Notes: generated by a model from the letters alone, not told the origin. Positions 12,005 through 48,526 are shown, counted from the stretch's first letter. The stretch is 64,000 nt of DNA from Coraliomargaritaceae bacterium (GCA_965656495.1 CBFHKU010000002.1:128001-192000), one strand, 5' to 3'. Program-made: numbers and translations.

Positions 12005-12069
12005 AGTATCGCACATACAAAAATACATGGCTTGGTATTTTTCGCCAAACTATTGGGAATTTCCGACGA
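12005..12069 (-). promoter_or_regulatory. Regulon promoter copy 1 (AraC-type direct repeat plus -10)
   Basis: Minus strand TCGTCGGAAATTCCCAATAGTTTGGCGAAAAATACCAAG-N20-GATACT (TGc extension). Confidence 0.8.
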
Positions 12070-12248
12070 ACTTCGTAGAGAAAATTCAATCTGAATTAGC
12101 CGCCATAGGTCAAGCGGCGCAAACCACCCAAACCCGAAAATTTCACGGATTTACCGTAGACGGGTTTTTATTTATTAAGCGTTAAGTTTGTATTCTTGAA
12201 TGAGCTGCAGGCTATTTTTCTTCATTTTCGCCCAAGCTCAGGTCCAAG

Positions 12249-14846
12249 CTAGGGGCGTTCGATATAGAAATCCAGTTTAGCACGTCCCCCTACACTCGCA
12301 TCACGCAACTCTCGACGTCCTACAATTCCCATCAACTGCGCATCTGCATCTCCGGTAATTTTCACCTGCGTGCCCTTCGGATTCAGGAAATTTACATTTA
12401 CCGCACGCAGAGATCCTCCGCTCATAAAAATACCTTCACCATGCCGGGTGGCATGTAAATTCTGTAAGAATAAATTACCGGCTTCTGACTCGACCAGTAA
12501 ATCCGGCGAACCCCACACCATGGTATTCACAAGGCTCGCTTCCGCACTGAACTTGGGGCCGACCTTAATCGCAGTCTTATCTTCCGATGACATCGCAACC
12601 AACTCCGAATTGATCATCGTGATACGCTCGCTGCCATGCTCAAAGAATACCCCGACCTTGGAGCCATCCGTTCCATGCCCGTGGGAAATACAATTCTTTG
12701 GACCACGCGACTGATTCTCCGTAAATCGAATTCCGCAAAGCGATCCATAGACAAAGTTCTGATAAAGGAATTGATTCTCGGTTGCTCCGATCGAGATCGC
12801 ATCAAGATTTTCTTTTTGCAACTCCCATAGAAGCTGACCGGTGCCACCATGGATACCGCCTTGAGCTTTATTGTCATAGTAACGATTCCGAGCCGGCGCG
12901 CGCGACCAATAGTGTGGGTTAAACTGCAAGTTACTCAGCTCTCCATCCACACTGCCACCACCAATCCAAACCCCCACTTTCAATGGTGAGCCCGACAGGT
13001 AATCCACATAGTGACGATCACAACGGTAGCTCATCAGATCCAAGTAGCGATAGGGGTTGGCTGCATTAACATCGATAATATAAATGTCGGCTCCCCTGCC
13101 CTGTATTAAGAATGGATACGATTTAACTGCCTCAACGCTCTGATTCGGATAATTAAACGAAACCCCGCGCAGCCCACTGTTGGCTGCCATCAGCACGCTG
13201 GGCGCATCGGAATTCGGGTAAATATGGAGCATACTGCCCCCGCCTTTTGTGTGATGCGGCACATCATGCACGCCGCGTAACTCGACAGCGGAAGGGATGC
13301 GCAGTTGACCATGAATCTCGTAATTCCCACCCGGCAAGAAAACCACCCCACCGCCATTGGCACTTAGCTGGTCCATCGCCTGCTGGATCCGAGTGGTCAT
13401 GTCTTGACCTTTGCGTGACTCGACCACCTTTAATTGGCTGCTACCTGGCTTATAACTACGCTCCGGTTTAAAGGGATAAGGTGGAATCTTAACCAACTCA
13501 GGCGCTTGATCCGACACCTGTAAGATCGAAGCCTTCGCCTTATTGTGGATCATCTGCTTCTCATCCAAAGCCTCGTTTGCGGCCAAGGTAACACCACTGA
13601 CATCTTCACCGATATGGATCGTGGAGGAACGGTCTTTAAACGCGCACCGAACCATGGAGAGGCTTCCATGTTGCAAATCCACCTCACCCCGCTCAATACG
13701 ACATTGCTCCATTAAAACGACGCCGTCGCCACGCGATTCAATCGCTTGCTTACCATACAAAATACAGGTCGAGAACAGCACTACCGAATCAAACTTCGGG
13801 CTTAACAGCACCGCCTGATCCTTCCCCTGGAAAAAGCACTCCGTAAAGATCATGCCATAGGGGTTCGTCTTATCCACCGCGAGTGCGATACCACAATTGC
13901 GCAGAATCAGTCGACGAAACTGCGCATTTGCCGCCCCCCGCTCGCCTTCACTCACCTTGAAACCAATACCGTAACCAGTGATAAAGACACGATCTACATA
14001 CTCCCAATCACTGCGTAGCATGTGAATGCCGACGGCCTCTCGCATCAACCAAGCGGCAAGCGGCCCATTGGCAGCAGGAGCCCCGGTCAATCCACTTTGC
14101 ACCCAATAATCCGGAGAAAAATAGACTTCCTGCAAACGCCCAATGTCCGTTGTCGAGTCGTAGCGAAACCCGGTTTTCAAAGGCGTGCCATATACATTGT
14201 GCACATAATGCAGCTCATTGGCTTGTGGCCCCACTTTGATGCCCAGGTATGGATTGACCAAAGTTAGGTTTTTGAAGGTCGCATTGTTCATACCGACCTG
14301 CTCCAAACAAAACGGATACGGCTGTATATCCGAAGCCGTCTGCTCCGGATACCAGATCGACAAGTCGCGTATACCGCCACTCGCACCCAAAGAAATGGCA
14401 GCAGGAGCCTTCGTTGTCCCCCGGTCGGCATACAGCATCAAGACAGTTCCAAGCACCTGACCTCCGGTTTTATGTGGCGATTGCCACTCTCCCCGAAGGA
14501 TGACCGATTCAGGGATTTTTAAGCGCCCTTTCAAGGCATACTTACCTTCCGGAGCGAACACGGTTCCACCACCCTCTGCAGCCATTGCATCCAAAGCTTT
14601 CTGAAATGCTTGGGTGCTATCCGATCCCCCATTTCGATCCGCACCAAAGTCGGTCACATCGTAGCCGGCAATCACAATGTCTGGAGTCGGATAGCGTGTA
14701 TCGACAATCTGCCAATTCGGGGCTCCTGCCCCATACACCTGCGATACAAAATAAAGGGCCAACAAGAGCCCTTTCCACACAATGCCTAATTTATCGATAC
14801 TCATACTTTGCCCCTCGCATGGCTCCGAATCACTGTCACCAGCCAT
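12249..14846 (-). CDS. Tandem beta-helix (pectate-lyase-3 superfamily) glycoside hydrolase/lyase
   Basis: Two N-cap motifs: DVTDFGAD..G..DST.AFQ.ALD...GGGTVFAPEG.Y and DMT..IQ.AMD...GGGVVFLPGG.Y. Signal peptide present; the true start may be ATG 14804. Confidence 0.8.
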   Translation of the reverse strand: MAGDSDSEPCEGQSMSIDKLGIVWKGLLLALYFVSQVYGAGAPNWQIVDTRYPTPDIVIAGYDVTDFGADRNGGSDSTQAFQKALDAMAAEGGGTVFAPEGKYALKGRLKIPESVILRGEWQSPHKTGGQVLGTVLMLYADRGTTKAPAAISLGASGGIRDLSIWYPEQTASDIQPYPFCLEQVGMNNATFKNLTLVNPYLGIKVGPQANELHYVHNVYGTPLKTGFRYDSTTDIGRLQEVYFSPDYWVQSGLTGAPAANGPLAAWLMREAVGIHMLRSDWEYVDRVFITGYGIGFKVSEGERGAANAQFRRLILRNCGIALAVDKTNPYGMIFTECFFQGKDQAVLLSPKFDSVVLFSTCILYGKQAIESRGDGVVLMEQCRIERGEVDLQHGSLSMVRCAFKDRSSTIHIGEDVSGVTLAANEALDEKQMIHNKAKASILQVSDQAPELVKIPPYPFKPERSYKPGSSQLKVVESRKGQDMTTRIQQAMDQLSANGGGVVFLPGGNYEIHGQLRIPSAVELRGVHDVPHHTKGGGSMLHIYPNSDAPSVLMAANSGLRGVSFNYPNQSVEAVKSYPFLIQGRGADIYIIDVNAANPYRYLDLMSYRCDRHYVDYLSGSPLKVGVWIGGGSVDGELSNLQFNPHYWSRAPARNRYYDNKAQGGIHGGTGQLLWELQKENLDAISIGATENQFLYQNFVYGSLCGIRFTENQSRGPKNCISHGHGTDGSKVGVFFEHGSERITMINSELVAMSSEDKTAIKVGPKFSAEASLVNTMVWGSPDLLVESEAGNLFLQNLHATRHGEGIFMSGGSLRAVNVNFLNPKGTQVKITGDADAQLMGIVGRRELRDASVGGRAKLDFYIERP

Positions 14847-14894
14847 ACTTCTACAAATCTAATGTGCGCTTCAAGAGTGTTGCTGTAGTCTGAA

Positions 14895-15560
14895 TTACAG
14901 CTCTTTAATTTTGATCTTTCGCCAAGCGACTTGGAAAGGGCCCGTTCCTTTTTTAATACCATGAATCTGTAAGCCAATCAGGCCACTTGGATTGCTCGCA
15001 TGGCGTTCCGCTGGAACAGTCGTCGTGATGACCTCGTTACCGTTGATCCACGTGGTGATCTGATCGCCCTTGGCGACCACACGGAAATGATTCCATTCAC
15101 CATCCTTGAAGAACGTGTGCGCTTTCTTGCTATCTTTCGGGGTCAGCCAGGTTTTCCAGCCCTGCCCATAGATATTGCCCGAACCATTCTTTTCAAAATT
15201 CCGCCCAGTGACTTCCACCTGCGGACCGTAAACCGCACCGTATTTTTCGCCCTTTTTGGGTTCGAACGTCTTCGAGCGAATCTGTACACCCGAGTTCAAT
15301 TCGTTGTCGATCAGCTTGGTCTCAAACTCGAGTTCGAAGTCGGCATAGTCCTTATTGGAACATAAGAATGTAGTGCCCAAGCCGCTCTTCGCAGTTCCAA
15401 TAATTGCACCGTCTTCCACCCGGAAAGAGCCTTCTTTGGTTTTTTCTGTCCAGCCGTCCAGGTTCAGACCATTAAACAGTTCAACCCAGTCGCCTGCACT
15501 CGCGGTTAGGCTGGCGAGTACGCTGAGACTCAGCACGAAGAGAATTTTTGTGTTACGCAT
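14895..15560 (-). CDS. DUF1080 (3-keto-disaccharide hydrolase family) protein
   Basis: Signal peptide; LFNG.NLDGW; NSGVQIRS; GEWNHFRV...G..I.TWING; G.IGLQIH; WRKIKIKEL. Confidence 0.92.
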   Translation of the reverse strand: MRNTKILFVLSLSVLASLTASAGDWVELFNGLNLDGWTEKTKEGSFRVEDGAIIGTAKSGLGTTFLCSNKDYADFELEFETKLIDNELNSGVQIRSKTFEPKKGEKYGAVYGPQVEVTGRNFEKNGSGNIYGQGWKTWLTPKDSKKAHTFFKDGEWNHFRVVAKGDQITTWINGNEVITTTVPAERHASNPSGLIGLQIHGIKKGTGPFQVAWRKIKIKEL

Positions 15561-15587
15561 TGTTCGTTCGATTGAATTGAACCTCAG

Positions 15588-15652
15588 ATGATCTCACAAA
15601 ACATGAGATCCCGCTTGGTCTAAATCGCCAAAAACCTAGCTTTTTCCGCCAA
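15588..15652 (-). promoter_or_regulatory. Regulon promoter copy 2
   Basis: Minus strand TTGGCGGAAAAAGCTAGGTTTTTGGCGATTTAGACCAAG-N20-GATCAT (TGa extension). Confidence 0.8.
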
Positions 15653-15759
15653 CCAGAGACCAACAGCGCCCAGTTTCTTACGATGAAGCGGTTGTATCAA
15701 CCGTTTATACAACTTCCCCTGTCCTTCCCGACACTGATTGACTTAACTGAAACGCGGTT

Positions 15760-15898
15760 CTAGAGCATTCTGCATTTAGTCTGAAGGTGTGGGTAGGGTT
15801 CGATATCCTTATCGAATCGCGACTGTATTCCCACGGAGCGTTAAGGATAACGCTCCCTACCAGCGATGACTCGTCAACTTAAGTGCAGAATGCCATAG
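15760..15898. repeat. MITE-like element with ~21-bp terminal inverted repeats enclosing an inverted pair of GTAG-type REPs
   Basis: Left end CTAGAGCATTCTGCATTTAGT; right end reverse complement CTATGGCATTCTGCACTTAAGT. Inner REPs: GGTAG-GGTTCGATA-TCCT-TATCGAATC (15792-15818, +) and GGTAG-GGAGCGTTA-TCCT-TAACGCTCC (15835-15861, -). Confidence 0.75.
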
Positions 15899-15921
15899 CA
15901 ACTATTCTTCAGAATCACAGC

Positions 15922-16110
15922 CTACTTATTCCCCAAAATTCGGATTCCATCCTTCTCTCCCGGAAGCCGAGTTGCCACCTGCTTTTTATTAAGCCAATTG
16001 CTTGGGTTCTCCCAGCTCGAATCAACGCCGCGTTTAAATCGGAAGATGTCCGCTGAAGCGGTAGCCACGGCGAGCGTTACCAATAGTCCTAGAAGGCGGT
16101 GCGTTGTCAT
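15922..16110 (-). pseudogene. N-terminal fragment of a secreted protein
   Basis: 62 aa: signal peptide (LLGLLVTLAVATASA) then SSWENPSNW.....LPGEKD, a motif that usually opens long secreted PVC proteins. Stops 24 bp from the REP/MITE element. Confidence 0.55.
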
Positions 16111-16166
16111 TTTTCAAGTAGATGGCGAGTAATTCACAAATACTACCCACACGCATACCACAAAAA

Positions 16167-16184
16167 AGAAGAAACGTTTAATCC
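16167..16184. promoter_or_regulatory. Putative LacI-family operator
   Basis: Minus strand GGATTAAACGTTTCTTCT shares GATTAAACGTTT with the site at 55717. Confidence 0.55.
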
Positions 16185-16279
16185 ATGTGATAGAATAGCG
16201 ATTCAAATCCATTTCCCTCAGGACATATCCCCTAATTGATTCGTTTGAATGATTAAGACGCCGATCAATCCGGCGCGAC

Positions 16280-19200
16280 TCAATTGGCCACCTTCAGGCG
16301 GACCGGCCCCAATAACCCAGCTTTACCCAGCTGGTCATCTTTCTCAAAGATCGGGCAAGTCGCGAAGGTATAGCGATTCTGCTCAGGACGTGGCGTGCCG
16401 TTTTTCAACCAATCCGGCACCGCGCTCAAGATCCCCCGAGTCAATTCAAAGTCCATCGGGTGTTGCTGGTCGCCAATCATTCGATTGCGCCAGAAATTAA
16501 TGACCTCAATCTCCAGCATGTTCTCGCCCGCGATAATGTGGTCTGTGATATCAGCGGCAAAAGGTGGTAACCACGCAACACCGACTTCTTGGCCATTAAG
16601 GATCACTTTAGCGACATCTTTAACGTCTCCCAGCTCAAGCAGTAAGCGCCCATCAGTCGGTTTTTCTATGTCCAAAGTTTTACGGTAAATCGCTTTTCCA
16701 GAGTAATACTGAATCGCCTCCTCCGGACGTTGATCCCATGAATCCAATGCATCAAACGATGCCTGTTCGGGTCCGCCCCATACTGGGTCAAACGAAAGCT
16801 CCCATGGCCCAGTCACCTCTTTGAGCAGTGTTTTATCTGTAGTTAAAAGGGGTGCAGGCTCAACTGAATCAGCTGGCTTAAATACCACAAACTGTGATCC
16901 GAGTTTTTCAAATGGAATGGAAATCAGCGTGCGTCCGTTGGCTTCCTCGAATGGAACGGAATAGATGTAACCCGTTGCTGGGTCCCAGAGTTGTGGCGTT
17001 TTACCACTCACACGAAAACTGCAATCAATGGTTTCCGGCTCTAGAAGATGGCTATTCACAAAGTAGATATCGGTTTCACCATCTAAGCGGTGAATATATT
17101 CAATCGGATCATTTGCCGTATTATAGGCCTTCCACATCGGCGACTGGATACGAGTGAAGTCCACCTTGAAATCGGGCTCTAGGCCGAGCTGCTGTTCGAT
17201 TTCAGCAAAATTGGCCGCTTCAAAAACACGCCCCTTTCCATACTGACCATCATTCCAAAGCTTATCCGCGAGCGCTTGTAGTTGCTCATCACTCTCGGCC
17301 ATCCCACCCGTCAAACCGGGGGTGCGAACCGGCTTAGGCCCGACAACCGTCGCACCAGATTTGACCAGCTTTTCGATCGATTGAAGCACATGCAGCGGCA
17401 TAGTTTGATTATTGGGCAACTGCAGGAAGCGATAGCTCATGCCATTCGGACAGACGATATTACCCGCGGCATCGACCTCGAACAGATCGGTAATCGCACC
17501 GGTATCACAACCATCGAAGTCATAACCTGCTGGCACATTACCGGGTAGTTTATCCCGAAACGGCAGAGTATTGGGAATGTCATCCCCGACGTAATAGACG
17601 AAGTCGCCAACAAAGCGGCCGGAGCGCAGCAAGGCTTCACATCGAGCAAAGTAAGCCGACAGCTTGTCCATATGCTCCCACCAAGTGTTCGTATGCATAC
17701 CGTCAATCGGTCCATACGGCCCCCATGTCAAACCGGGCTTGATGGAATCGTCCAGCGGTTGGAGGCAGGTGCCATGTAGCGAAACCGTAGTGAGCCCCCG
17801 GCAAAAGGCAGCATCGGCAATCGCTTTCATACGTAGCGGTCCAAGCATGTTGTGCGCATAGGAAGTGAAAGATTCGCCGATTATTTGCTGCTCTTCCGGT
17901 TTGATTTCGTTGTAGAGATGCACCGCAGACGAGCCATTTTTGATATCCTGACGAATGCTGTAATGCGGATATTCGGCTTCGACCTCGCGTTTCGATTGCA
18001 CCCAAAATTCGCCAATAGGCACATCCACCTGCTTCTGGTAGTTGACCGCATCATACATGAACTGCTGAGCTCCGCCATTATCGCCATAAGAGCGAAGGCC
18101 ATCCTTGTGAGCCAGCCGAGTGCGTTCGCCCATGTAGTTTTCCGCCATCAAATCGGCAATGGTTCGGCGAAAGTCGCGTAGAAAACGCTCGGATGCATCG
18201 AAACTGCCCAACACATATCCGCCGCATAGAACGGGAAGATAAGGCTTCAATGAATAGCCGCGACGAGCCTGGAATTCTTCAGACATCCGCTGCGTCCAAT
18301 TCTGCGTTTTGCTTTCGTAGCTCTCCGCATAGATCGCCATCGGCTGATGTTCAATGCCTTCAGCACGCGCCATTTTGACGATACGTCCGACCAAGTTGCT
18401 GTAGTTTACCGCAACACCTGAAGGCGAAAGTTTGTCGACCGTCATATACGGTTCATTTTTACTGCCATGTGTATATTTTCCGTTGAAAGTATATCCGATA
18501 CGTAAGATGCGCCAATCACCTTGTGGCAATTCGGCATTCAAACGGCCCTGATCGTCCAAAGCATCGGTCAAATCAATCACTTCATCGAGGGCGATGCCGG
18601 CGCTCTCATTAACAAAACCTCTTTCTTCGAATTGATTCTTCTTTGCAATTCCATTGCCATGACCATGTGGGTAACCACTCCCGTTTTTTAAATGCAGGTT
18701 GTGAATGCCAGCCTCACCACGGAGATCAAAACCAGAGAGGTCCTTAGGAATGGATCGAGCAAATTGTAATCGCACACGCGACGCACGGACCGTCTCTAAG
18801 TTGGAAGCATAAAAAGGTCGGCTCGCCTTACAATTCGTTCCGAACGACACTTCGTTACCAACAGAATTATTATTTTGATCAAAGAACTGAACCGTACATT
18901 CCACCTTAAACTTTACCCCGCTCCCCTGATGAAGGCTCATATAACTAATATCTGTCGGTTGGGATAACACGAAGTCAATATAGTCTCCGCCCTCTGCCTT
19001 ATCGCCTGCTTGAACTGTTAAGCTTTGGCCATTAAATTCGAAGGGCTTATCTTGGTAGAACTTGCTACTCGAAAAGACTTCAACACCCTGAGCCAAAGAG
19101 ACATCATTCGACAATGCGGGTAGCGCGAGGCAGGCGACATCTCGATAGTAAGACTCACGCGTGAGCGGCTGCGAGAGTTGAATGTTGTTTAAGCGACCGC

Positions 19201-19639
19201 CGCCGACGATCTGTTCAGTGTGCACCAGAATCTTCATCGCGTCCTCCAACTCGACCCATGGCCCACCATCAATGTCCCAGAAAGGTGCACTCAGCACGGC
19301 GATCTGCATATCTTTCTCCTCAGCTTCACGGAAGAGATGCAGCAACATCTTGTCCCATTCGGGAGTATTGTAATGCGCTGGCTTTGAAACCATATCTTGT
19401 GGCACCCAAGAACCAAGTGAATGAAACAACTGATACCCCTTGCCACCCTCTTCCTTAAAACGCTCCATATCGCGCGTGATCGCTTCCTCAGTCACGTTTC
19501 CGCTCATCCAACCATGATAGCGCCAGATGCCATACTGCTCAGGAGCCGTCAAAAATCGTTCATTTGGCTCAGCCTGGCCATAGGCCACGCTGGAGAGTAT
19601 CAGGGATATCAAGATTTTGGTTACAGGTTTCATTTTCAT
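16280..19639 (-). CDS. GH106 family alpha-L-rhamnosidase-like glycoside hydrolase
   Basis: W..GNVT.EAITRDME.F...G; GGPWV; ESYE..TQNWT..M..EF..RRGY; P.GEFW; ESFT; C-terminal YYSG.A.Y, LELG.V.DVA.V..NG, GLLGPV. ATG 19639 (MKMKPV) gives a clean signal peptide. Confidence 0.88.
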   Translation of the reverse strand: MKMKPVTKILISLILSSVAYGQAEPNERFLTAPEQYGIWRYHGWMSGNVTEEAITRDMERFKEEGGKGYQLFHSLGSWVPQDMVSKPAHYNTPEWDKMLLHLFREAEEKDMQIAVLSAPFWDIDGGPWVELEDAMKILVHTEQIVGGGRLNNIQLSQPLTRESYYRDVACLALPALSNDVSLAQGVEVFSSSKFYQDKPFEFNGQSLTVQAGDKAEGGDYIDFVLSQPTDISYMSLHQGSGVKFKVECTVQFFDQNNNSVGNEVSFGTNCKASRPFYASNLETVRASRVRLQFARSIPKDLSGFDLRGEAGIHNLHLKNGSGYPHGHGNGIAKKNQFEERGFVNESAGIALDEVIDLTDALDDQGRLNAELPQGDWRILRIGYTFNGKYTHGSKNEPYMTVDKLSPSGVAVNYSNLVGRIVKMARAEGIEHQPMAIYAESYESKTQNWTQRMSEEFQARRGYSLKPYLPVLCGGYVLGSFDASERFLRDFRRTIADLMAENYMGERTRLAHKDGLRSYGDNGGAQQFMYDAVNYQKQVDVPIGEFWVQSKREVEAEYPHYSIRQDIKNGSSAVHLYNEIKPEEQQIIGESFTSYAHNMLGPLRMKAIADAAFCRGLTTVSLHGTCLQPLDDSIKPGLTWGPYGPIDGMHTNTWWEHMDKLSAYFARCEALLRSGRFVGDFVYYVGDDIPNTLPFRDKLPGNVPAGYDFDGCDTGAITDLFEVDAAGNIVCPNGMSYRFLQLPNNQTMPLHVLQSIEKLVKSGATVVGPKPVRTPGLTGGMAESDEQLQALADKLWNDGQYGKGRVFEAANFAEIEQQLGLEPDFKVDFTRIQSPMWKAYNTANDPIEYIHRLDGETDIYFVNSHLLEPETIDCSFRVSGKTPQLWDPATGYIYSVPFEEANGRTLISIPFEKLGSQFVVFKPADSVEPAPLLTTDKTLLKEVTGPWELSFDPVWGGPEQASFDALDSWDQRPEEAIQYYSGKAIYRKTLDIEKPTDGRLLLELGDVKDVAKVILNGQEVGVAWLPPFAADITDHIIAGENMLEIEVINFWRNRMIGDQQHPMDFELTRGILSAVPDWLKNGTPRPEQNRYTFATCPIFEKDDQLGKAGLLGPVRLKVAN

Positions 19640-19705
19640 CTCTGTTTCTGATGAATTCCAACGACACGAGGGACCTTGCAAAAATCAAACCGTCGAGGAC
19701 TCAAT

Positions 19706-19770
19706 ATTTTCTCATACTCTGAAAAACATAGCTTGGGTTTTTCCGCCAGAACACTGGCGATTTCGGACAA
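19706..19770 (-). promoter_or_regulatory. Regulon promoter copy 3
   Basis: Minus strand TTGTCCGAAATCGCCAGTGTTCTGGCGGAAAAACCCAAG-N20-GAAAAT (TGa extension). Confidence 0.8.
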
Positions 19771-19795: not shown

Positions 19796-21262
19796 CTAAC
19801 GCTCTCGTTGTGGAATTTCAGTGACCTCATAGTGAACTCGGAGCTCCTGTAAACCATTCTTGAGCTTGGCCACGATCGAGGCGTATTCCGGATTGTGATA
19901 CTCGCTCTTCAATTCCTTGGGATCTTTCTCTAGATCAAACAGCTCCCACTCTTCACCCTCTGGAACGCCCACTCCATAGAAGCGGATTAGTTTGTAGCGC
20001 CCCGTAAAAACCCCTTCGTGACGGCGCACACTGTGTGTGCCAGGAAATTCGTAATAATGGTAATACAGCTTGTCGCGCCAGTCTGCAGGCGTTTCGCCTT
20101 TCAAGATCGGCACGAGGCTTTTTCCCTGCATGTCCGCAGGAATTTCAACACCTGCGATACCGAGAAAGGTTTCTGCGAAATCGATATTCTGAACTAGATC
20201 CGTATTGATCGATTCGGGTTCAATCACGCCGGGCCACTTAGCTAAAAACGGCGTGCGAAAGGATTCCTCATACATGAAACGTTTATCAAACCAGCCATGC
20301 TCCCCGAGGTAGAACCCTTGGTCCGCAGAATACATCACCACTGTGTTGTCCTCTAAATCATTATCTTTGAGGTATTGAAGTAAGCGCCCGACATTCTCAT
20401 CCACACCAGCAATGCAAGCGAGGTAGTCACGCATGTATGCCTGATACTTAGCACTAATGAGTTCTCTGCCGCTGAGCCCCGAATCAATCAGCTCCTGCTT
20501 GCGATGCGGCCAACGATCGGTCTTTAAATCCTTCTCCATTCGCATCGTAATATCGATTGACATGTCTTGCTCGTGCGCTGCAACACCTCGACCGCTGTAA
20601 TCATCGAAGAGCGTGTCCGGCTCCGGGAAAGTCATCTGAGCAAATGGCTCTCTGAAACGCTCCGCAGGAATCCAGGTGCGGTGCGGCGCTTTGAAGTGAA
20701 CCATCGCCATGAATGGCTTCGACGGGTCTCGTTTATCTTGCAGCCACTCCAGTGCACGATCGGTAATAATATCGGTCGAGTGTCCTTGATAGCTGGTTTT
20801 TCCCTTTTCGGTAATGAACTCAGGATTCTCATAACTACCCTGCCCTGGGAGCACTTCCCAATAGTCAAAGCCCTGCATATTTCCAGAGAGGTGAATTTTA
20901 CCAATCATGGCCGTCTGATAGCCATTTGCTTGCAGGAGCTTCTGGAACTGCTGCTGGTAGTGATTGAATTCACCATGGTTGTCGATTTTGCCATGCAGGT
21001 GACTGTGCTTGCCCGTCAACAGGGTCGCTCGACTCGGCGCACAGATGGAGTTCCCCACGTAGCACTTGTCAAAGCGCATGCCCTCTGCAGCAATCGAGTC
21101 GAGATTCGGTGTCAGATTAAACGGCTGGAAACGCCCTCCATACGCACCCACTGCCTGGAATGCATGGTCATCGGAAAACAGCCATAAGATATTCGGCTTT
21201 TCTGCTGCGCATACATTCGCGAGCAAGAGTAAGGTCATCACCGCAAGTAGATCGATCTTCAT
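19796..21262 (-). CDS. S1 sulfatase (N-acetylglucosamine-6-sulfatase-like)
   Basis: PNILWLFSDDH; CAPSRATLLTG; GKIHL; DQGFYLGEHGWFDKRFMYEES; YYHYYEFP. Start moved to ATG 21262 (signal peptide, no overlap). Confidence 0.92.
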   Translation of the reverse strand: MKIDLLAVMTLLLLANVCAAEKPNILWLFSDDHAFQAVGAYGGRFQPFNLTPNLDSIAAEGMRFDKCYVGNSICAPSRATLLTGKHSHLHGKIDNHGEFNHYQQQFQKLLQANGYQTAMIGKIHLSGNMQGFDYWEVLPGQGSYENPEFITEKGKTSYQGHSTDIITDRALEWLQDKRDPSKPFMAMVHFKAPHRTWIPAERFREPFAQMTFPEPDTLFDDYSGRGVAAHEQDMSIDITMRMEKDLKTDRWPHRKQELIDSGLSGRELISAKYQAYMRDYLACIAGVDENVGRLLQYLKDNDLEDNTVVMYSADQGFYLGEHGWFDKRFMYEESFRTPFLAKWPGVIEPESINTDLVQNIDFAETFLGIAGVEIPADMQGKSLVPILKGETPADWRDKLYYHYYEFPGTHSVRRHEGVFTGRYKLIRFYGVGVPEGEEWELFDLEKDPKELKSEYHNPEYASIVAKLKNGLQELRVHYEVTEIPQRER

Positions 21263-21293
21263 TCGGGATGCCTCAATTCTTGGGTTTACCATA

Positions 21294-23240
21294 TCAATCT
21301 TTCCCATGGCGGGCACGGAAACGTTCCTTCCAAGGCGGACGCGGTCCGAAAACACGATTCTCGAGCAACAACTTGTGCTGTCTCTGCCATTCTTCCAATG
21401 TAAGAATCAAATTATCGACCCAACGCACCTGCTTAGTAATCGTTTCCGTGCTGTTCCAGAAAAGAAGCCTTTTTTTGTAAGGAGGAGACAACTGACCGGC
21501 ACTTTGATTACGGGCTGGCACCAGAATATTTTTGGTCATGTCTACATTCAACCCTCCCTTGGCATGAAAGCGCACGGGGCTGGATGCAGTATCATGAACC
21601 ACGTTTTCGGTATAGGCGATGCCGCTGCTTCCCTGATCCGGGTAGATGCCATTATTATCCGAAGCTCCGTTGAGCGGGCTGCGTTGGATATCGTGTATGT
21701 AATTCCCTTTAACCATGGATCCCGGCTGATTTCCCAGTGTGTAAATACCACCACCGTCGCCCAGCAGGAGCATGACACTAGAGATATGGTTGCCGATCAC
21801 TTTGTTGTTTTCCGCCATGGTGGGCTCATTGCTCCACTGCCACCCCATGGAGATGCCGGTGTATGACAGGTCGCGTATCCGGTTATGTGAAATTTCACAA
21901 TCGGCTGCCAAGCCTTGCCAGACACCGACTGCGCCGGCGCAGATATGACCGACCCGTTCAATCAGCGAATCCGTAACTGTGATTCCTCTCACCTGCGCTG
22001 CCCCATCTACATCATGGGTTGAACCGATCATCACGCCATTGCCGCCGCAATCGCGGATCACGCAACCGGCAAGGATAATATCACGACAACCAGTGGCAAA
22101 ACGGGGACCATGTCCGCCAATGCACGTAAATTGAATATCGCGAAGCGATCCCTGCCGCCAAAACCGGGCAGAGAAGGCGGCTTCTCCAGCCACATCAAAC
22201 AGTTTCCGATTCTCGTCTTCCGGTATCATGATGTGACGCTGAGCCGCCTGCGCTCCATCATATCCATGCGGATGCAGATGGTATGCCACATGACGTATCG
22301 CAAACTGACTGAAATAAAGATTAACAACCGGTGCTTCAGCAGTGCCCACTATGTTAATCAGGCTGCTTGTCCGAGGAATAACCAGTTGGGTCTGCGAAAC
22401 CTTTTCTCCTGCCCGTGGGCGATAAACCAGCTCGCGCGTCAAAGCATCCACCGCCCAGTCGCCTGGCCGGGCGATAAAATCGGGATGTCCCTCAAACCAG
22501 CAATTAAATCTCTTAATGCGCTCGGTGGCAGCCATCGTGTTATGACGATTTTTTTGACCTTCGATTGCCCTGAAGCGTGTTGGACTAGCCAACTCCAGCG
22601 CGGAGCCTTCCGCATTCACTACCCGTTGACGAAACAAGGCCCAGTCCTTCATTACAGCCACTGTGAATCCGGATTTCGGCAACGGCGCCTCTGGGACATT
22701 CAGCAGATGCAGTATACTGTGGTTTGACAGCCCTTTGATCTCCCCATCCGTCTGATGATCCAGCCGAACCAGCGGAAGCATCGGTTTCTCGGCATCCGGC
22801 AAAGGCCAACGGGCAATCTGTGCCCACTGATCATTTACGTAAAGCTGTTCCGGAAGCGGACCGTCGGGCAGCGGGACCCGCCAGTCACCAGTTTTACTGA
22901 CCGAAATATTGGATAGCAAGATCCCCCCACTGATCACAGTATCCGCTTCGCCCACCCACCGCGTATAGCCGTCCCTCGAATCCAGCAACAGCGGATCTAT
23001 CAGGTGATGCGTGCCGCTCTTAAGATGAATGATGAAGGTTTCCCCGGGATTGCTCGAGTGCCATACCCGAGCAGCATCCCTGGCTTCCACAAGACTTTCG
23101 CCTGGAGCGACAACAAGAGTCTCTACCGCCAGCGTATCAATCAATGGGTCCACCACCTCTGCGGGTTGTTTTTCTGCGGCCCATACATTTGCTAGTAAAA
23201 GCAACGTAGTGAGACACAGTAGTTTGAGTTGGATCTGCAT
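21294..23240 (-). CDS. Right-handed beta-helix protein, GH141-like
   Basis: SL.EARDA.R; ISGG; QLYVN......ARWP; YTGISMGW.W; L.DGGGIYTLG.QPG; GIYPDQGSS. Confidence 0.78.
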   Translation of the reverse strand: MQIQLKLLCLTTLLLLANVWAAEKQPAEVVDPLIDTLAVETLVVAPGESLVEARDAARVWHSSNPGETFIIHLKSGTHHLIDPLLLDSRDGYTRWVGEADTVISGGILLSNISVSKTGDWRVPLPDGPLPEQLYVNDQWAQIARWPLPDAEKPMLPLVRLDHQTDGEIKGLSNHSILHLLNVPEAPLPKSGFTVAVMKDWALFRQRVVNAEGSALELASPTRFRAIEGQKNRHNTMAATERIKRFNCWFEGHPDFIARPGDWAVDALTRELVYRPRAGEKVSQTQLVIPRTSSLINIVGTAEAPVVNLYFSQFAIRHVAYHLHPHGYDGAQAAQRHIMIPEDENRKLFDVAGEAAFSARFWRQGSLRDIQFTCIGGHGPRFATGCRDIILAGCVIRDCGGNGVMIGSTHDVDGAAQVRGITVTDSLIERVGHICAGAVGVWQGLAADCEISHNRIRDLSYTGISMGWQWSNEPTMAENNKVIGNHISSVMLLLGDGGGIYTLGNQPGSMVKGNYIHDIQRSPLNGASDNNGIYPDQGSSGIAYTENVVHDTASSPVRFHAKGGLNVDMTKNILVPARNQSAGQLSPPYKKRLLFWNSTETITKQVRWVDNLILTLEEWQRQHKLLLENRVFGPRPPWKERFRARHGKD

Positions 23241-23257
23241 GCTAATTTATCAGTCCT

Positions 23258-24544: not shown

Positions 24545-24633
24545 ACGTATCTCCTTGGGTGTTTTATCTCTCTTCTTTCATCAATGGGCCGAACTATTTT
24601 TGACTCCTTGTAGCTCGCCTGATCTGCCGTAGA

Positions 24634-25596: not shown

Positions 25597-25705
25597 AACG
25601 ATTATTTACGAATGTATGGGTAAGCTGTCGTGATTTCGCATTAGGGCATAACTTGATTTTCCAAAATGGGCTTGGATCACCAACCTAGTTAGCTCCCTTG
25701 AACTC

Positions 25706-27160: not shown

Positions 27161-27169
27161 GGGGACTCC

Positions 27170-33031: not shown

Positions 33032-33045
33032 TAGAACGTTTATCT
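33032..33045. promoter_or_regulatory. Putative LacI-family operator at the predicted transcription start
   Basis: TAGAACGTTTATCT shares AACGTTTATCT (11 bp) with the operator at 55717. Lies 7-20 nt downstream of -10 TAAACT. Confidence 0.5.
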
Positions 33046-33051
33046 TTAGCA

Positions 33052-33116
33052 AGTTTATCAAAATAGAGTCACTAAGTCTTGGTTTTTTTCGCCAAACCAA
33101 TGGTATTTTTCGCCAA
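33052..33116 (-). promoter_or_regulatory. Regulon promoter copy 5
   Basis: Minus strand TTGGCGAAAAATACCATTGGTTTGGCGAAAAAAACCAAG-N20-TAAACT (TGa extension). The two half-sites differ at 1 of 16 bases. Confidence 0.85.
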
Positions 33117-33343
33117 AGAGAGAAAATACTGCAGGCTTCAAGCTTGATGGGAGGCACAAGCCGCTCCTAGTAGCGATTCCATTCGTCTCAATGCCAGCGA
33201 CGCTTTACAAGGCAAAGACCTTAGGCAATTCAGCTCTAGCTCTTCAGTTAACCTCATTATAATCAAAGCCAATTCTCCTGAGTTGCACTGCTTGATGAAA
33301 ACAATAGAATCCCATATCCCTTAGCAAAAACGAAGAACTTCAT

Positions 33344-33371
33344 AAAAACTGCAAACTCTGAAACTTGCAGT
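33344..33371 (-). terminator. Rho-independent terminator of the second PEP-CTERM gene
   Basis: ACTGCAA...TTGCAGT stem with a T-tract on the minus strand; resembles the terminator at 32188. Confidence 0.6.
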
Positions 33372-33415
33372 AGATAAAAGAAAAAGGGAGATCCCACTTT
33401 GTTTTTGGCCTGACG

Positions 33416-34183: not shown

Positions 34184-34248
34184 AGTTTCCCTCAAATCAG
34201 CTATTATGTCTTGGTTTTTTTCGACAAATAGATGGCGTTTTCCGCCAA
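34184..34248 (-). promoter_or_regulatory. Regulon promoter copy 6
   Basis: Minus strand TTGGCGGAAAACGCCATCTATTTGTCGAAAAAAACCAAG-N20-GAAACT. Confidence 0.8.
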
Positions 34249-36104: not shown

Positions 36105-36184
36105 TTTAAAATTTATCTTAATGGTTCTGGGGGCTGGTTACAACGTATGAATGCCGACGTTCTTTAGAGTGATTCATTCGATGA

Positions 36185-37669
36185 CTATTTCTTCTTCTTT
36201 TTTTGTTTCTTAGCGGGGGCGGCTACGTCGCCAGTAATATTGTTCGGACTGTTCGCTAGAGCGGCAGCCAGGCGCGCGGCGACCTCAGGATAATCCGCGA
36301 TGACATTGTTACTTTCACCAATGTCGTCTTTCAGATTGTAGAGCGTCGGACCTTTAGAGTTCCGTTTCGTCTCCTTCACCTTGAAGTGTTCTTGCGCGTG
36401 GTATTTCCAGTCGCCACTGCGCACCGCCGAGGTGCCATAGAAGAAATATTCATGCGGTGTCGTGGCCCCCTCCTTCGCAGTCAATAGATCGATGATCACT
36501 TTACCATCGGGCTCCATATCCCTTGGTATCTGAGCACCCGTAATGTGTGCAAATGTGGGGAACAGATCCATTGAAAGCGCTATCTCTTCGCAGACCGATC
36601 CTGCAGGAATTTTTCCCGGCCACTTGATAATCGCAGGGACGCGTTGACCGCCTTCGAAACAGGTCATTTTACCCTCAAACAGCGGAAGCGCCGAGCCACC
36701 GTCCTCTCCTTTAATTAGCCACGGCCCATTGTCCGATGTGAAGACCACGATGGTATTGTCCTCGATTCCAAGCTCTTTGATGCGGTCGAGCACGCGGCCC
36801 GTGTTGAAGTCGATTTCCTCGATGACGTCTCCATACAGACCTCGCTTGCTTTTACCTGCAAACTGAGGCGATGCATAGAGCGGCGTATGCGGCATGGAGT
36901 TCGCAAGATACAGGAAGAATGGCTTACCTTCCTTGACGCTTTGCTCCATGAATTGGATGCCTTCCGTCGCAAAGCGATTGGTAATGGTCGACTGGTCTGC
37001 TGGGAATTCCACACACTCCTCATCACGCATTAAAGGCACCATGTCCTTCATCGAGCGAGGGTTGCCGTTGCGCAATTCGCCTGCAAAGGCCTGCTTCAGC
37101 GTCGCATGACTCTGTCCTTCAAGGAACAAACAATCATCCGCATATTTCATCGAAGAAGCTGGATACATGTCATTACTGTATGGAATCCCGTAATACGAAT
37201 CAAAGCCCTGACTCGTGGGCAAGTAGGCTGGCTCGTCACCGAGGTGCCATTTACCCACAGCGGCCGTGTTATAGCCCACCGTCTTCAAAAGTTCCGCAAG
37301 CGTCACATGCTCCGGATTCAGGCCTCCACTGTCGCGGTTAGGGAAAAAGACCCCTTTGACTCCGATGCGATTCGGATAGCAGCCCGTCAAGAGTGCGGCA
37401 CGTGATGCCGAGCAGACCGGTGATGCCACGTAGAAGTCGGTAAATCTCATCCCCTCCGCAGCCAGTTGGTCCACCCGCGGGGTGCGGATATCCGGCGATC
37501 CATAACAGCCCAAATCCTGATAGCCCTGATCATCGTTGAAGATGAGCACGATATTCGGCTGACTGAGGTCTTTTGCAGACGCTGGAGCTGCCTGCGTCAC
37601 GGCATGAAGCCCGAGGCCAAGTGTAAGCGTTGCGGCAATTGCAGCCGACCGTTTAAATAGATATCTCAT
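36185..37669 (-). CDS. S1 sulfatase (arylsulfatase A-like) with Lys-rich tail
   Basis: PNIVLIFNDDQGYQD; CSASRAALLTG; GKWHLG; GIPYSNDM; SDNGPW; C-terminus KKQKKKKK. Confidence 0.92.
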   Translation of the reverse strand: MRYLFKRSAAIAATLTLGLGLHAVTQAAPASAKDLSQPNIVLIFNDDQGYQDLGCYGSPDIRTPRVDQLAAEGMRFTDFYVASPVCSASRAALLTGCYPNRIGVKGVFFPNRDSGGLNPEHVTLAELLKTVGYNTAAVGKWHLGDEPAYLPTSQGFDSYYGIPYSNDMYPASSMKYADDCLFLEGQSHATLKQAFAGELRNGNPRSMKDMVPLMRDEECVEFPADQSTITNRFATEGIQFMEQSVKEGKPFFLYLANSMPHTPLYASPQFAGKSKRGLYGDVIEEIDFNTGRVLDRIKELGIEDNTIVVFTSDNGPWLIKGEDGGSALPLFEGKMTCFEGGQRVPAIIKWPGKIPAGSVCEEIALSMDLFPTFAHITGAQIPRDMEPDGKVIIDLLTAKEGATTPHEYFFYGTSAVRSGDWKYHAQEHFKVKETKRNSKGPTLYNLKDDIGESNNVIADYPEVAARLAAALANSPNNITGDVAAPAKKQKKKKK

Positions 37670-39114
37670 CCTTTTTTCTTCGTTTTCTTTTTCTTAGATT
37701 TAGCCGCTTTTTCGGGATCGAACAACGACTGCTCCGTTGCGATCGGATCAGAATCATTAAGTTCTGCTAAGCGTTGTTTAAGTTGCTGCTTCAAGGCCTC
37801 GGCAATCGCATGATATTCGGGATTGTCGATCTCATTATGCAGTTCGTATGGATCTCTCGTTAGATCATACAGTTCATATTCAGGCCGCTGGTGTAATTTC
37901 TGAACCAAATGTTGCTCCTGGTCAGTCTTGTCAGCCAATGCGACCCACGACGCTGCCAGATCGATTGTTGATGGCGATTGTCCCTTCAACAACTGCAAGG
38001 CATTGCTTAATGTGACGTTGGAAGTTTGCTGAGTATAATTCGGATTATAGATCAGTGAAAATTCCTTATTGCGGATGACGCGAATGGGATAGATGCGATC
38101 ACGGTTGTCACTAATATTACAATTGGTAAAGGCTCCATATAGATAATCATGAATCACTGCACTCTCGCCTTTCAATAAGCCAAGAATGCTCTTCCCGTCG
38201 AAATCATCCGCAACCGAAGTGCCGCCAGCAACATCCACCAAAGTTGGAGCTATATCCTGAATCGATACCAACTCATCCACAACTGTCCCCGGCTTCGTAA
38301 CTCCAGACCAATGAGCAACCAGTCCGGTGCCTAGGCCTTGGTCATAACAGGTCCATTTTGCGAAGGGAAGCTGTGTGCCTTGCTCACTGCAGACGATGAA
38401 TAAAGTATTCTCCCACACTCTACGTGCTTCGAGCTCCGCACGAACACGGCCAACCAATGAATCAAAGTTGCTGATTTCTGCATAATAAGCGACCATCGTC
38501 GCACGTAACTCAGGCGTATCCACCCAATAAAGAGGAACAGTTAATTCTGCGGCATTGTATATCGACGGGTCACCCGTGGTAAAGGGTGCGTGGGAATCGT
38601 TCGATGCAATAAATAGGCAAAACGGCTTTCCCTCTTCTGCGCAGGAATCCATGAACTCACGACTCTTCGCCAAATACACATCGTTCTGATCTTCCCGCTT
38701 ATTCCCGCCTTTAATATATTCAAAAGGGTAACACTCTTGAGGACCGATGTGCCCCTTCCCAAGCAGCGCAACCCGATAGCCAAGCGCTTTCAAATAATGT
38801 GGGACACTCTTCGTCCCCTCCTTGGACTTAGAGTGATTGGCCAAGGTGCCAGTCCGCCAAGGCGTGCGGCCACTGTAGAGTTCTTGCCTGAAAGGTGCAC
38901 ACATGGCGACTGAACAATAGGCGCGGTCAAACTTTACCCCTTCCGCCGCCAAGGTATCAATATTGGGTGTCTTGCAGTCGAGGCCTCCATATGCGCCCCA
39001 GGTGTCACGGCTCATATCATCGGCCAAGAGAAAGACGATATTCGGTTTTTCGATAGCGTGAGCGGTGAGCGCGCCGAAGCACAGCACACAGATAACTCTA
39101 ATAACACGCTCCAT
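37666..39114 (-). CDS. S1 sulfatase (N-sulfoglucosamine sulfohydrolase-like) with Lys-rich tail
   Basis: PNIVFLLADD; CAPFRQELYSG; SEQG..LPFAKWTCYD; C-terminus KSKKKKTKKKG; ATGA overlap with the next gene. Confidence 0.92.
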   Translation of the reverse strand: MERVIRVICVLCFGALTAHAIEKPNIVFLLADDMSRDTWGAYGGLDCKTPNIDTLAAEGVKFDRAYCSVAMCAPFRQELYSGRTPWRTGTLANHSKSKEGTKSVPHYLKALGYRVALLGKGHIGPQECYPFEYIKGGNKREDQNDVYLAKSREFMDSCAEEGKPFCLFIASNDSHAPFTTGDPSIYNAAELTVPLYWVDTPELRATMVAYYAEISNFDSLVGRVRAELEARRVWENTLFIVCSEQGTQLPFAKWTCYDQGLGTGLVAHWSGVTKPGTVVDELVSIQDIAPTLVDVAGGTSVADDFDGKSILGLLKGESAVIHDYLYGAFTNCNISDNRDRIYPIRVIRNKEFSLIYNPNYTQQTSNVTLSNALQLLKGQSPSTIDLAASWVALADKTDQEQHLVQKLHQRPEYELYDLTRDPYELHNEIDNPEYHAIAEALKQQLKQRLAELNDSDPIATEQSLFDPEKAAKSKKKKTKKKG

Positions 39115-39166
39115 ATTAAATTCTTATTAGGACTTCGGATCGGATGACTTTCAACAGACAACAGCC

Positions 39167-40555
39167 TTAACTGTTCTTTGCCTTTTTCTTTTGTTTCTTT
39201 TTGGAGCCTTTACCTGCTTTTGCTTCCAGGCCTTCAACAGTGGCCATGTCATCAATGACAGCCTTCAGTTGAGTGAATACCCTATTTTCAGCCTCAGAGA
39301 CATCCTTCAAGTTGACCGTTTGGCTCGAAAAGTACCCCTCAAATGCCTGGTAGCGGTATTGCTCAGATTTCGAGTCGTATAAGACGCCATACTCTTTAGT
39401 GCGCACCCAAGTTTTTCCTTTATACCAGATGTAGATGTTGTCCTTAACACGCTCACCTGTCCCGCTGAGCGCAGGCCACAAGCTGACACCGTCCTGCGGA
39501 TAATTTTCGGGCAACGGTGCTCCAGTAAGCTCACACAGCGTCGGCATGATATCTGAAAACTCCACCAACTCCTCCGTATCAACCTTAGGTGAGATCATTC
39601 CCGGCCAATTGACCACCAGCGGCACACGTGTCCCGGTGCCCTCCACTTTTCCTTTTCCACCGACAACTTCCCGTCCTGACCAATTGGTAATGATCGGTTT
39701 ATCCGTCCCGTTATCTCCGGTGAAAATGATCAGCGTATTGTCGCGAAGGCCAAGCGCCTCAAGCTTTGCAACTATCTTCCCAACGATCTTATCGCTGTAT
39801 TGCACCATATCTTTGAAATGCCCCTTCAGATCCTCATATTTCCCCTCACCTTTATATTTCGGAGAACCCGGAGACTTCGGATCCCAGGTCGGGGAATCCG
39901 GCGTGGCATCAAAGGGACAATGCGTCAGGATCATCGGATAATAGACCAAAAAGGGCTGATCTTTGTTCGTTTCAATAAAATCGCAGATGAAGTCCGCACA
40001 GACGTCCGGCCCGTATTCACCGTTGGTGTAATCCACTTCGACACCATTGATTTCCAGGCACGGATTCGGAAAGCGCGAATCAAACTTTGTGCCTGCTTTC
40101 ATTCTTGGCCGTGTATGCTGCCACATGCAGGCTTCATCGAAGCCAAAATGCTTCGGTGAATCGACCTCATCACCCAATTGCCATTTACCTGCGATGACCG
40201 TCGCATAGCCGACCTGCTTCAATTGGTGCGCAAACGTTTTCTGAGAACGATCCAGCACGCCAAACTTCACATAATTCCGCTTATTGTATTGCCCGGTCAT
40301 TATTTTGACACGCGAAGGCGTACACAAAGGATTCGCAAAACAGTGCTCAAAACGAACCCCCTCAGCCGCGAGCTTATCAATCACGGGGGTCTGGTAATCT
40401 TCACTACCATTGGCACTGATACATTCATAGCCCAGATCATCGGCCATGATCAGCACAATGTTCGGCTGATCGCCCGGATTCCGCCCAAACAAATCAGCGC
40501 TGGCGATGAAGACTGCGCAAAGCAATCCAAGCATTTTTAAAATATACTGAATCAT
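39167..40555 (-). CDS. S1 sulfatase with Lys-rich tail
   Basis: PNIVLIMADDLGYE; CTPSRVKIMTG; GKWQLG; YYPMILTH.PF; GDNGT; C-terminus SKKKQKKKAKNS. Confidence 0.92.
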   Translation of the reverse strand: MIQYILKMLGLLCAVFIASADLFGRNPGDQPNIVLIMADDLGYECISANGSEDYQTPVIDKLAAEGVRFEHCFANPLCTPSRVKIMTGQYNKRNYVKFGVLDRSQKTFAHQLKQVGYATVIAGKWQLGDEVDSPKHFGFDEACMWQHTRPRMKAGTKFDSRFPNPCLEINGVEVDYTNGEYGPDVCADFICDFIETNKDQPFLVYYPMILTHCPFDATPDSPTWDPKSPGSPKYKGEGKYEDLKGHFKDMVQYSDKIVGKIVAKLEALGLRDNTLIIFTGDNGTDKPIITNWSGREVVGGKGKVEGTGTRVPLVVNWPGMISPKVDTEELVEFSDIMPTLCELTGAPLPENYPQDGVSLWPALSGTGERVKDNIYIWYKGKTWVRTKEYGVLYDSKSEQYRYQAFEGYFSSQTVNLKDVSEAENRVFTQLKAVIDDMATVEGLEAKAGKGSKKKQKKKAKNS

Positions 40556-40614: not shown

Positions 40615-40923
40615 CTAAACGACAACACGCAGCACTTAAGCCCATGGTTCCAAACTTCTTCCAATAGACATCTCTATTTCGTGCCTCTCAAGTGGCGTCG
40701 CACGCATTACCTGCAAGCGGCACACGCTGGAAGTAGACACCAAACCGGATGCCTGCATACCCTCGGGATCAACGGCAGCCTCTGTTTTGAGGTTCGAAGA
40801 TATGAAGATTTGGTGCTTTAACTTCTTGGAATCAGAGAAGCCTAAGGTCACTGGGCCCTCAACCTGAGCGAGCACTGCGATCGGCGATGCCGCGATGACA
40901 ATAGTAGCAGTGGTCCTCTTCAT
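40615..40923 (-). pseudogene. Probable decayed PEP-CTERM gene (95-aa ORF plus eroded tail)
   Basis: Signal peptide MKRTTATIVIAASPIAVLA; ORF ends LEPWA*, then gtg ctg cgt gt tgt cgt (VLRRRR-like); sits directly behind a regulon promoter. Confidence 0.4.
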
Positions 40924-40998
40924 ATCTTAGAATTAGGGTCCTTATTTGGCAGGTGCCAATATAGCCATGGTAATGAACTTATATAATTGTACCTCAAA

Positions 40999-41063
40999 AT
41001 CGTAGAGTAATATGGCGCGAATTGCTTGGTATTTTACGCCAAAACAGTGACGCTTTCCGACAA
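40999..41063 (-). promoter_or_regulatory. Regulon promoter copy 7
   Basis: Minus strand TTGTCGGAAAGCGTCACTGTTTTGGCGTAAAATACCAAG-N20-TACGAT. Confidence 0.8.
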
Positions 41064-48317: not shown

Positions 48318-48461
48318 CGAAAAACCTCCTGAGATCTTGCACCTGTGTCTTAAATTCAAGCTTTGTTCGTGCTCTGAAGGTATATTCATATTTGATCAAT
48401 GGAGTTTAGCTCAACACCACCCAGAAAAAGCTAGTGACTGAACCTTAACTTGTAGGCATGC

Positions 48462-48526
48462 AATATCTCATATTAAGCGACAAATGGCTTGGCTTTTTAC
48501 GCCAATAAAAATGCGTTTTGCGCCAA
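48462..48526 (-). promoter_or_regulatory. Regulon promoter copy 8
   Basis: Minus strand TTGGCGCAAAACGCATTTTTATTGGCGTAAAAAGCCAAG-N20-GATATT (TGa extension). Confidence 0.8.

Follow-up and report, generated by a model that had tools for sequence, protein, structure and literature searches.

Putative tandem-repeat promoters in a sulfatase-rich island of a Coraliomargaritaceae bacterium and the adjacent REC-AraC regulator that probably activates them

We analysed a 64,000-nucleotide stretch of DNA (hereafter the window) from a Coraliomargaritaceae bacterium (GCA_965656495.1, CBFHKU010000002.1:128001-192000; G000:C2:128001-192000 in our numbering of genomes and contigs), whose genome comprises 2.06 Mb in 31 contigs and is rated 99% complete. 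The window carries a minus-strand sulfatase locus, an embedded two-component system and eight promoter-like sites that share one layout (Table 1). These sites lead runs of 22 genes in total, with transcription units predicted from gene spacing, and the genes encode 12 sulfatases, a GH106-family rhamnosidase, two beta-helix enzymes, an esterase, an oxidoreductase, a 3-keto-disaccharide hydrolase, two PEP-CTERM-type proteins, a sensor kinase together with a response regulator. A first-pass annotation of the sequence had proposed that this regulator, which combines a receiver (REC) domain with an AraC-type DNA-binding domain, activates the eight promoters. That proposal is supported by the way in which the motif tracks one regulator clade and by the poor fit of rival regulators, with activation itself suggested by geometry. 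We consider it very probable that the adjacent REC-AraC protein binds the repeats and switches on 11 weak σ70-type promoters of the island, probably in response to a sulfated glycan fragment sensed by its partner kinase.

Read on the minus strand, each of the eight window sites consists of a 16-nt half-site, 5 nt, an 18-nt half-site ending in CCAAG, 20 nt and an nAnnnT hexamer that resembles a -10 element. The pentamer CTTGG was present on the plus strand at all eight positions listed in the first-pass annotation, and the 21-bp period between half-sites and the 20-nt gap to the hexamers were likewise found in all eight, as were TG one base ahead of the hexamer in six sites and TTGACA at -35 in none. 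The tandem layout stood, whereas the consensus proposed for the distal half-site (TTGKCGnAAAAnnCCA) was too strict, with AAA alone invariant and CCA exact in four of eight. Copies had been reported only before minus-strand genes, which does not extend to the island as a whole: three plus-strand copies lie just outside the window. The resulting 11 sites all fall inside 56 kb of the genome, with a half-site period of 21 bp in ten and 22 bp in one. Each copy had also been placed before the first gene of a unit; after the site at 41025, that first gene is a decayed PEP-CTERM gene and not a sulfatase. The site at 34210 falls inside the longest open reading frame (ORF) call, which begins with GTG at 34252, but if the ATG further downstream, at 34138, is taken instead, the protein begins like a signal peptide.

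The motif has no counterpart of similar score elsewhere in the genome. When a matrix built from the eight window sites was run against the genome (4,122,414 positions), ten positions scored 39.9-53.7 bits and the next 13.4, while a scan permitting spacers of 4-6 nt added the eleventh site at 43.6 bits, with the top unrelated match at 19.8 bits. Leave-one-out scores of the window sites were 27.5-49.5 bits. A pattern derived from the sites gave 8 window matches and 0 in 200 shuffles, a comparison that is circular because the pattern was made from the same sites. A matrix made solely from 22 sites of another family (f61) recovered 11 of 11 sites of the G000 genome at 22.7-51.7 bits, with the next match at 10.0. 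The genome-wide scan that had been suggested as a check shows a motif confined to one island rather than scattered through the genome.

The promoter architecture suggests how the repeats might act. The -35 slots match TTGACA at 1-4 of six positions, none beginning with TTG and all eight with AAG, and the proximal half-site overlaps the slot by 3 bp. By contrast, TTGAC occurs within 70 nt upstream of 17 of 35 tRNA genes in this genome. We compared 38 held-out sites outside the window (three from the same genome and 35 from five other genomes, some of them orthologs), in which TGnnA occurred at exactly the 20-nt offset in 28 and at any other offset in at most four. Held-out hexamers conformed to nAnnnT in 19 and to nAnnnY in 30, and the -12 base was G in 33. 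A consensus promoter scan detected none of the eight motif promoters and no excess over shuffles (25 versus 20.3). As in class II activation, the proximal site overlaps a non-consensus -35 slot at a fixed distance from a putative -10 element. These features suggest weak, likely σ70-type promoters with a TG-extended -10, arranged as where AraC-family proteins activate through region 4 of sigma (PMC9429829, available text). Contigs from an RNA run (X1; contigs only, 0.06 of words) fall on pieces of the island and cannot show level or start; they map to the PEP-CTERM gene (window 32257-32708) and to other island genes, 16 of 17 at at least 99% identity.

The same regulator could instead repress from these repeats, or act both ways. 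The activated form of BT4124, a Bacteroides hybrid two-component system (HTCS) protein with footprinted tandem half-sites, is described in the available text of PMC13292587 as repressing its targets. However, promoters that lack TTGACA and have weak -10 hexamers offer little to repress, and the fixed 20-nt distance suits contact with polymerase and not simple blocking, which makes repression very unlikely. It could also be argued that no activator is needed and that the conserved block serves as promoter for an alternative sigma factor, either the group-2 sigma at C3:22041 or an extracytoplasmic function sigma, given the unusual -10, in which G at -12 predominates and C at -7 is common, and the presence in the genome of another σ70-family factor whose region 2.4 residues are changed. 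Such a sigma leaves unexplained why a second copy lies 21 bp upstream, why the sites are confined to the island and why they match a regulator clade, and tRNA promoters of the same genome likewise vary at -12; we regard this reading as extremely unlikely. Whichever sigma reads the -10 is compatible with activation by the regulator. In the group-2 sigma factor (G000:C3:22041), residues of region 3.0 as well as region 2.4 differ from those of RpoD in the same genome.

The proposed activator is the sole REC-AraC protein among the 11 AraC proteins of the genome. Its top match in the PDB is the HTCS protein 12aw (E 3e-63), and its start overlaps the kinase ORF by 11 nt. Across the two genes the HTCS domain set (Reg_prop/Y_Y_Y, HisKA, HATPase, REC and AraC helix-turn-helix) is complete. 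The fusion typical of Bacteroides HTCS proteins is absent: the ORFs are separate and overlapping here and in four other genomes (G028, G496, G538 and G540), which rules out a sequencing frameshift, while some paralogs of the regulator family are fused. Within the latch motif C/SHIP-D.K, the regulator reads AHIP, its first residue being A and not C or S, and has D173 and K212, which were assigned by motif. Judged by sequence, the regulator and kinase are a Bacteroides-type HTCS split into two genes. Relatives of the regulator bear the source names Opitutales, Coraliomargarita and Pontiella desulfatans, and the nearest outside its clade are Bacteroidota HTCS proteins at about 40% identity. The source names would place the host in Verrucomicrobiota; a search for a 16S gene had no match, and RecA compared with plasmids gave no taxonomy. 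A scan of genome contigs returned only relatives at 33-44% identity, mostly from Bacteroidota; among these 79 loci, a single motif match of 20-23 bits occurred in two, both without the promoter pattern. Site 8 heads a run of sulfatase, sulfatase, kinase and regulator both here and in G028, and a second regulator copy with its own site occurs in G496, G538 and G540, an arrangement from which we infer positive feedback of the regulator on its own operon. The first-pass annotation had overlooked both the split HTCS and the site that leads the regulator's operon. Tandem duplicate regulators lie behind one kinase at G496:C3:46460-48337, G540:C2:322732-324663 and G538:C56:22951-25114, giving two response regulators per sensor.

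Four other regulators lie in or beside the island and might occupy the sites: the cupin-AraC proteins at C2:101704 and C2:106535, a ROK protein at C2:112183 and a LacI protein at window position 54527. The ROK and LacI proteins have orthologs at 68-87% identity in G028 and G062, both of which carry the motif, but in G496, G538 and G540 they find only matches at 36-39% identity, away from the main motif clusters. The AraC protein at 101704 is present in 32 of the 101 genomes of its own family, 30 of them motif-free, and that at 106535 has orthologs at 61-79% in the motif-free genomes G089, G090 and G023; neither was found in G062. The searches for these two cupin-AraC proteins covered the bacterium's own family. 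Binding by any of the four appears very unlikely.

The REC-AraC regulator follows the motif more closely. Our comparison set comprised 155 genomes from two families, the bacterium's own (n=101) and f61 (n=54), and multi-site clusters occurred in exactly those six genomes that have a regulator ortholog of at least 62% identity. In the own family, an ortholog of at least 64% identity was present in three of 101 genomes and the motif in the same three, with 8, 7 and 1 matches; one of these genomes, G062, has three further sites supported by the proximal-plus-extended-10 pattern and a degenerate site behind the regulator. In f61, orthologs at 62-70% were found in three of 54 genomes, with 6, 12 and 7 motif matches, while two other genomes had one 2-mismatch match each and a reversed-pattern control gave one. 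The 11 orthologs form a single clade (SH-aLRT 100 in a quick tree) with conserved recognition helices. At three clade loci the window matrix picked out 11, 6 and 6 sites, against 0 across 16 paralog loci, and more distant paralogs had no such site nearby. A metagenome pattern scan yielded seven loci, five of which fit the promoter layout; L098 lacks the -10. In the remaining one, an unrelated-looking metagenome contig (L095:1938-1997), a unit resembling the proximal half-site forms a short tandem array with periods of 17-21 nt. Phylum-wide searches scored six candidates per genome, so blanks there are weak.

Neither regulator nor motif was found in the six same-genus genomes (1.3-1.8 Mb), while island proteins are 85-94% identical in G028, which belongs to another genus; the island (G000:C2:94001-200000) therefore looks horizontally gained. 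In G028, sites also stand back to back and face in opposite directions (C118 and C185; L102 and L103). The repeats might also be read as recombination or cassette-joining sites left by island assembly, as they mark the starts of gene blocks shuffled between genomes and contain TTGG-N9-CCAA inside the proximal half. Yet the spacers are unconserved and a -10-like element follows the repeats at a fixed distance, the back-to-back copies in G028 each face their own divergent gene, and no recombinase appears among the Pfam matches. We give this reading almost no credence.

Activation by the REC-AraC protein would proceed as follows. The periplasmic propeller sensor would bind a sugar fragment, upon which the kinase would phosphorylate D69 and release the latch between receiver and DNA-binding domains, as described for Bacteroides HTCS proteins. 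Head-to-tail binding of two regulator monomers at a 21-bp spacing might follow, with one helix of each on TTGKCG and the other on CCA(AG). Of the two, the proximal monomer would lie over 3 bp at the start of the -35 slot and, in the manner of RhaS, recruit RNA polymerase to the poor TG-extended -10, and through site 8 on its own operon the system would amplify itself. We consider the regulator likely to be a class II activator that is gated by phosphorylation and drives its own operon as well; activation is favoured because the -35 slot is overlapped by 3 bp, TTGACA is absent and the -10 is weak. Several observations weigh against this model. The regulator and its sites travel together as an island, and co-occurrence among kin is not independent, which makes that evidence strong but not conclusive; the held-out promoters include orthologs. 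No site lies behind the clade member on G538:C99, and the kinase was not found in G062, a genome that is 80% complete. The -7 base is often C in f61 sites (T in 20 and C in 12 of the 38), which is atypical for σ70, and the tandem-site regulator BT4124 appears, from the available text of PMC13292587, to repress.

Table 1. Sites, signalling genes and site-led genes. Positions are those of the window unless a contig is given.
Feature	Position	Strand	CTTGG start (plus strand)	-35 slot	Description
Site 1	12005..12069	-	12031	AAGCCA	Half-sites 12069-12031, -10-like hexamer 12010-12005; ahead of 910-aa sulfatase 9168-11900
Site 2	15588..15652	-	15614	AAGCGG	Lowest-scoring window site; ahead of 3-keto-disaccharide hydrolase 14895-15560 and beta-helix enzyme 12249-14846
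Site 3	19706..19770	-	19732	AAGCTA	Ahead of GH106 alpha-L-rhamnosidase-family gene 16280-19681
Site 4	31984..32048	-	32010	AAGCAA	Ahead of 8-gene run 31767-19796; terminator-like hairpin upstream, 32220-32193
Site 5	33052..33116	-	33078	AAGACT	Ahead of PEP-CTERM gene 32259-33002; terminator-like hairpin upstream, 33371-33348
Site 6	34184..34248	-	34210	AAGACA	Ahead of PEP-CTERM-like gene 33416-34138, likely ATG start
Site 7	40999..41063	-	41025	AAGCAA	Directly behind regulator gene; ahead of PEP-CTERM remnant and four sulfatases 40555-34299
Site 8	48462..48526	-	48488	AAGCCA	Ahead of two sulfatases, then kinase, then regulator
Three extra sites	G000:C2:120309, 123721, 125955	+			Just left of window, one sulfatase after each; 125955 with 22-bp period
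REC-AraC response regulator, 279 aa	41156..41995	-			HTCS-type; D69 phospho-acceptor position; H92, D173, K212 candidate latch residues; proposed binder
Sensor kinase, 1044 aa	41985..45119	-			Reg_prop and Y_Y_Y sensor, HisKA, HATPase; without receiver domain
Targets of sites 1-3	9168..19681	-			Large sulfatase, beta-helix enzyme, 3-keto-disaccharide hydrolase, GH106
Eight-gene run behind site 4	19796..31767	-			Five sulfatases, BD-FAE esterase, oxidoreductase, BT1002-like beta-helix protein
Two PEP-CTERM-type surface proteins	32259..34138	-			One site each
Four sulfatases	34299..40555	-			Downstream of site 7
PEP-CTERM gene remnant	40756..40977	-			46% identity over 74 aa to intact G028 gene in the same place
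Two sulfatases	46641-48389, 45251-46690	-			Share about 80% identity with sulfatases that follow a motif in G496, G538, G540

The beta-helix protein of the site 4 run resembles BT1002 (E 2e-29). Starting from the leftmost site, rhamnose isomerase and transporter genes occur roughly 14-20 kb further left. PDB matches could not fix the identity of the exact substrate; our best guess is a sulfated polysaccharide that contains rhamnose or fucose. Among the 36 window proteins there was no match to the SusD family and a single TonB-dependent receptor (5844-8594), which is not the SusC/SusD pairing. The PEP-CTERM gene that is decayed here between site 7 and the sulfatase is intact at the equivalent place in G028 and G062. 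Two plus-strand ORFs at window 198-4380 (1144 and 301 aa), which have no Pfam or NCBIfam match, precede genes for an oxidoreductase and a TonB-dependent receptor and have no site in front of them, the nearest being C2:125955. The mannose module at window 48543-60409 (PMI, HAD and GH38; LacI, GH99-like and SSF) is motif-free, as the first-pass annotation had observed, and in G540:C4 a PMI/GH38 block like this one lies next to another split HTCS. Left of the window, G000:C2:113521-120060 (L002:3521-10060) encodes oxidoreductases, a double 3-keto-disaccharide hydrolase, an Nramp-like transporter and a TIM-barrel protein, with a ROK regulator divergent; we take this gene set to resemble an oxidation-elimination glycoside pathway. 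According to the available text of PMC8857213, marine Verrucomicrobiota specialise in breaking down sulfated polysaccharides of fucose and rhamnose.

We also examined paralogous regulators. Other repeats stand behind their genes, roughly as far from a -10-like hexamer; in five of eight paralog sites, nAnnnT lay exactly 20 nt past the 3' box. A matrix from two G496 sites identified one site beside a related regulator in G106 at 30 bits, and these three sites were the only matches in five genomes searched. A 5' box TGKCG pairs with R..QRK helices and a 3' box GGTTA or GATTA with EPTHF or EPTNF; among 610 background upstream regions, such box patterns turn up in 3, 1 and 1. G214 and G540:C1 escaped the first 3'-box pattern, which was relaxed after inspection, so that these two are post hoc. 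Frozen patterns applied to new loci gave 0 of 7 exact predictions (L088 twice, L220, L227, L228, L232 and L233), with near matches at L227 and L233 that have a -10-like hexamer at 20 and 19 nt. The box pattern also missed G534:C302, and G121, whose regulator is almost identical to that of G106, has no site of the G106 type. When repeats were clustered de novo, the positive control gave the motif with 7 members and two of eight paralog loci gave 2-member repeats, but 2-member clusters also came up in five of seven negative regions. We tentatively raise the possibility that Verrucomicrobiota sulfated-glycan islands are run by a detached HTCS family with a two-box code, in which the first recognition helix would specify the 5' box (R..QRK going with TGKCG) and the second would specify the 3' box (DLSHF with CCAAG, EPTHF with GGTTA, EPTNF with GATTA). 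This code is a lead and not a result. If it were true, regulons could be predicted from protein sequence, and binding to tandem sites would not depend on the kinase tether believed to bring together the DNA-binding domains of fused HTCS proteins.

The motif marks exactly placed predicted promoters, and it groups the 12 sulfatases, ten other window genes and at least three sulfatases outside the window into one likely co-induced set; the inducer would therefore point to the substrates of many uncharacterised sulfatases. A clade member (P0019, P0124) is named by its source as from Pontiella desulfatans, which is described as a pure culture (PMC7356697, available text), and this brings RNA-seq and footprinting within reach. 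The detached regulator also offers a natural way to test whether tandem-site binding needs tethering to the kinase, a question that arises in the accessible parts of PMC11253607 and PMC13292587; the latter describes footprinted tandem half-sites, the latch, a detached regulator that is monomeric, and repression.

With respect to novelty, the first-pass annotation did not recognise the motif as described, which holds for its sequence but not for its layout. Direct repeats 21 bp apart were predicted for 16 Bacteroides HTCS regulators, with HTCS_Man at 16+5+16 (Ravcheev et al., 2013; PMC3878776, available text). TTGGCG, TTGTCG and CCAAG are absent as text from five supplements of that paper, in which the logos are pictures. 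A Kiritimatiellia survey (10.64898/2026.10.06.756941) reports two-component genes beside sulfatase clusters, and its accessible text contains neither "motif" nor "promoter"; the accessible text of PMC11253607 does not mention Verrucomicrobia, and that of PMC8857213 and PMC11685898 contains none of promoter, AraC or two-component. The literature searched, which left most subscription papers, theses, RegPrecise and bioRxiv supplements outside, contained no transcription factor site or promoter model for Verrucomicrobiota glycan genes. Nor did it show this motif sequence, the host in Verrucomicrobiota, the extended -10 of σ70 type or the detached regulator, although their absence from print is unproven.

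Among known systems, the stand-alone REC-AraC proteins of the YesN type have the same domain order as the regulator, and some of its matches are so named by their source; unlike them, its nearest relatives outside the clade are HTCS proteins of Bacteroidota and its sensor is of the HTCS propeller type. HrpX of Xanthomonas is an AraC-type activator, not known to have a receiver domain, that acts at PIP-box promoters, where a direct repeat lies at a fixed distance from a weak -10; in sequence and function that system is unrelated to the motif described here. RhaS of Escherichia coli senses its sugar directly and binds inverted half-sites, whereas the regulator here appears from its sequence to have a phosphorylation input and direct-repeat half-sites. 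Acidic residues occur in the second helix-turn-helix of the regulator at VTDIA and GDLSH, and they probably correspond to D241 and D250 of RhaS. As with RhaS, the site overlaps the -35 slot by a few base pairs (4 bp for RhaS; PMC9429829, available text). The closest likeness is to the HTCS regulons of Bacteroides, as far as the accessible parts of PMC3878776, PMC13292587 and PMC11253607 describe them: a propeller/Y_Y_Y sensor, HisKA/HATPase, a REC-AraC regulator, direct repeats of about 21-bp period upstream of local glycan operons, and putative H, D and K latch residues. Unlike those regulons, this one has a separate kinase and regulator, a Verrucomicrobiota host, a σ70-like extended -10 and a site on the regulator's own operon, and no SusC/SusD pair is annotated. 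Taken together, the signal appears to work like a Bacteroides HTCS regulon whose kinase and regulator are not fused, on σ70-type promoters and in another phylum.

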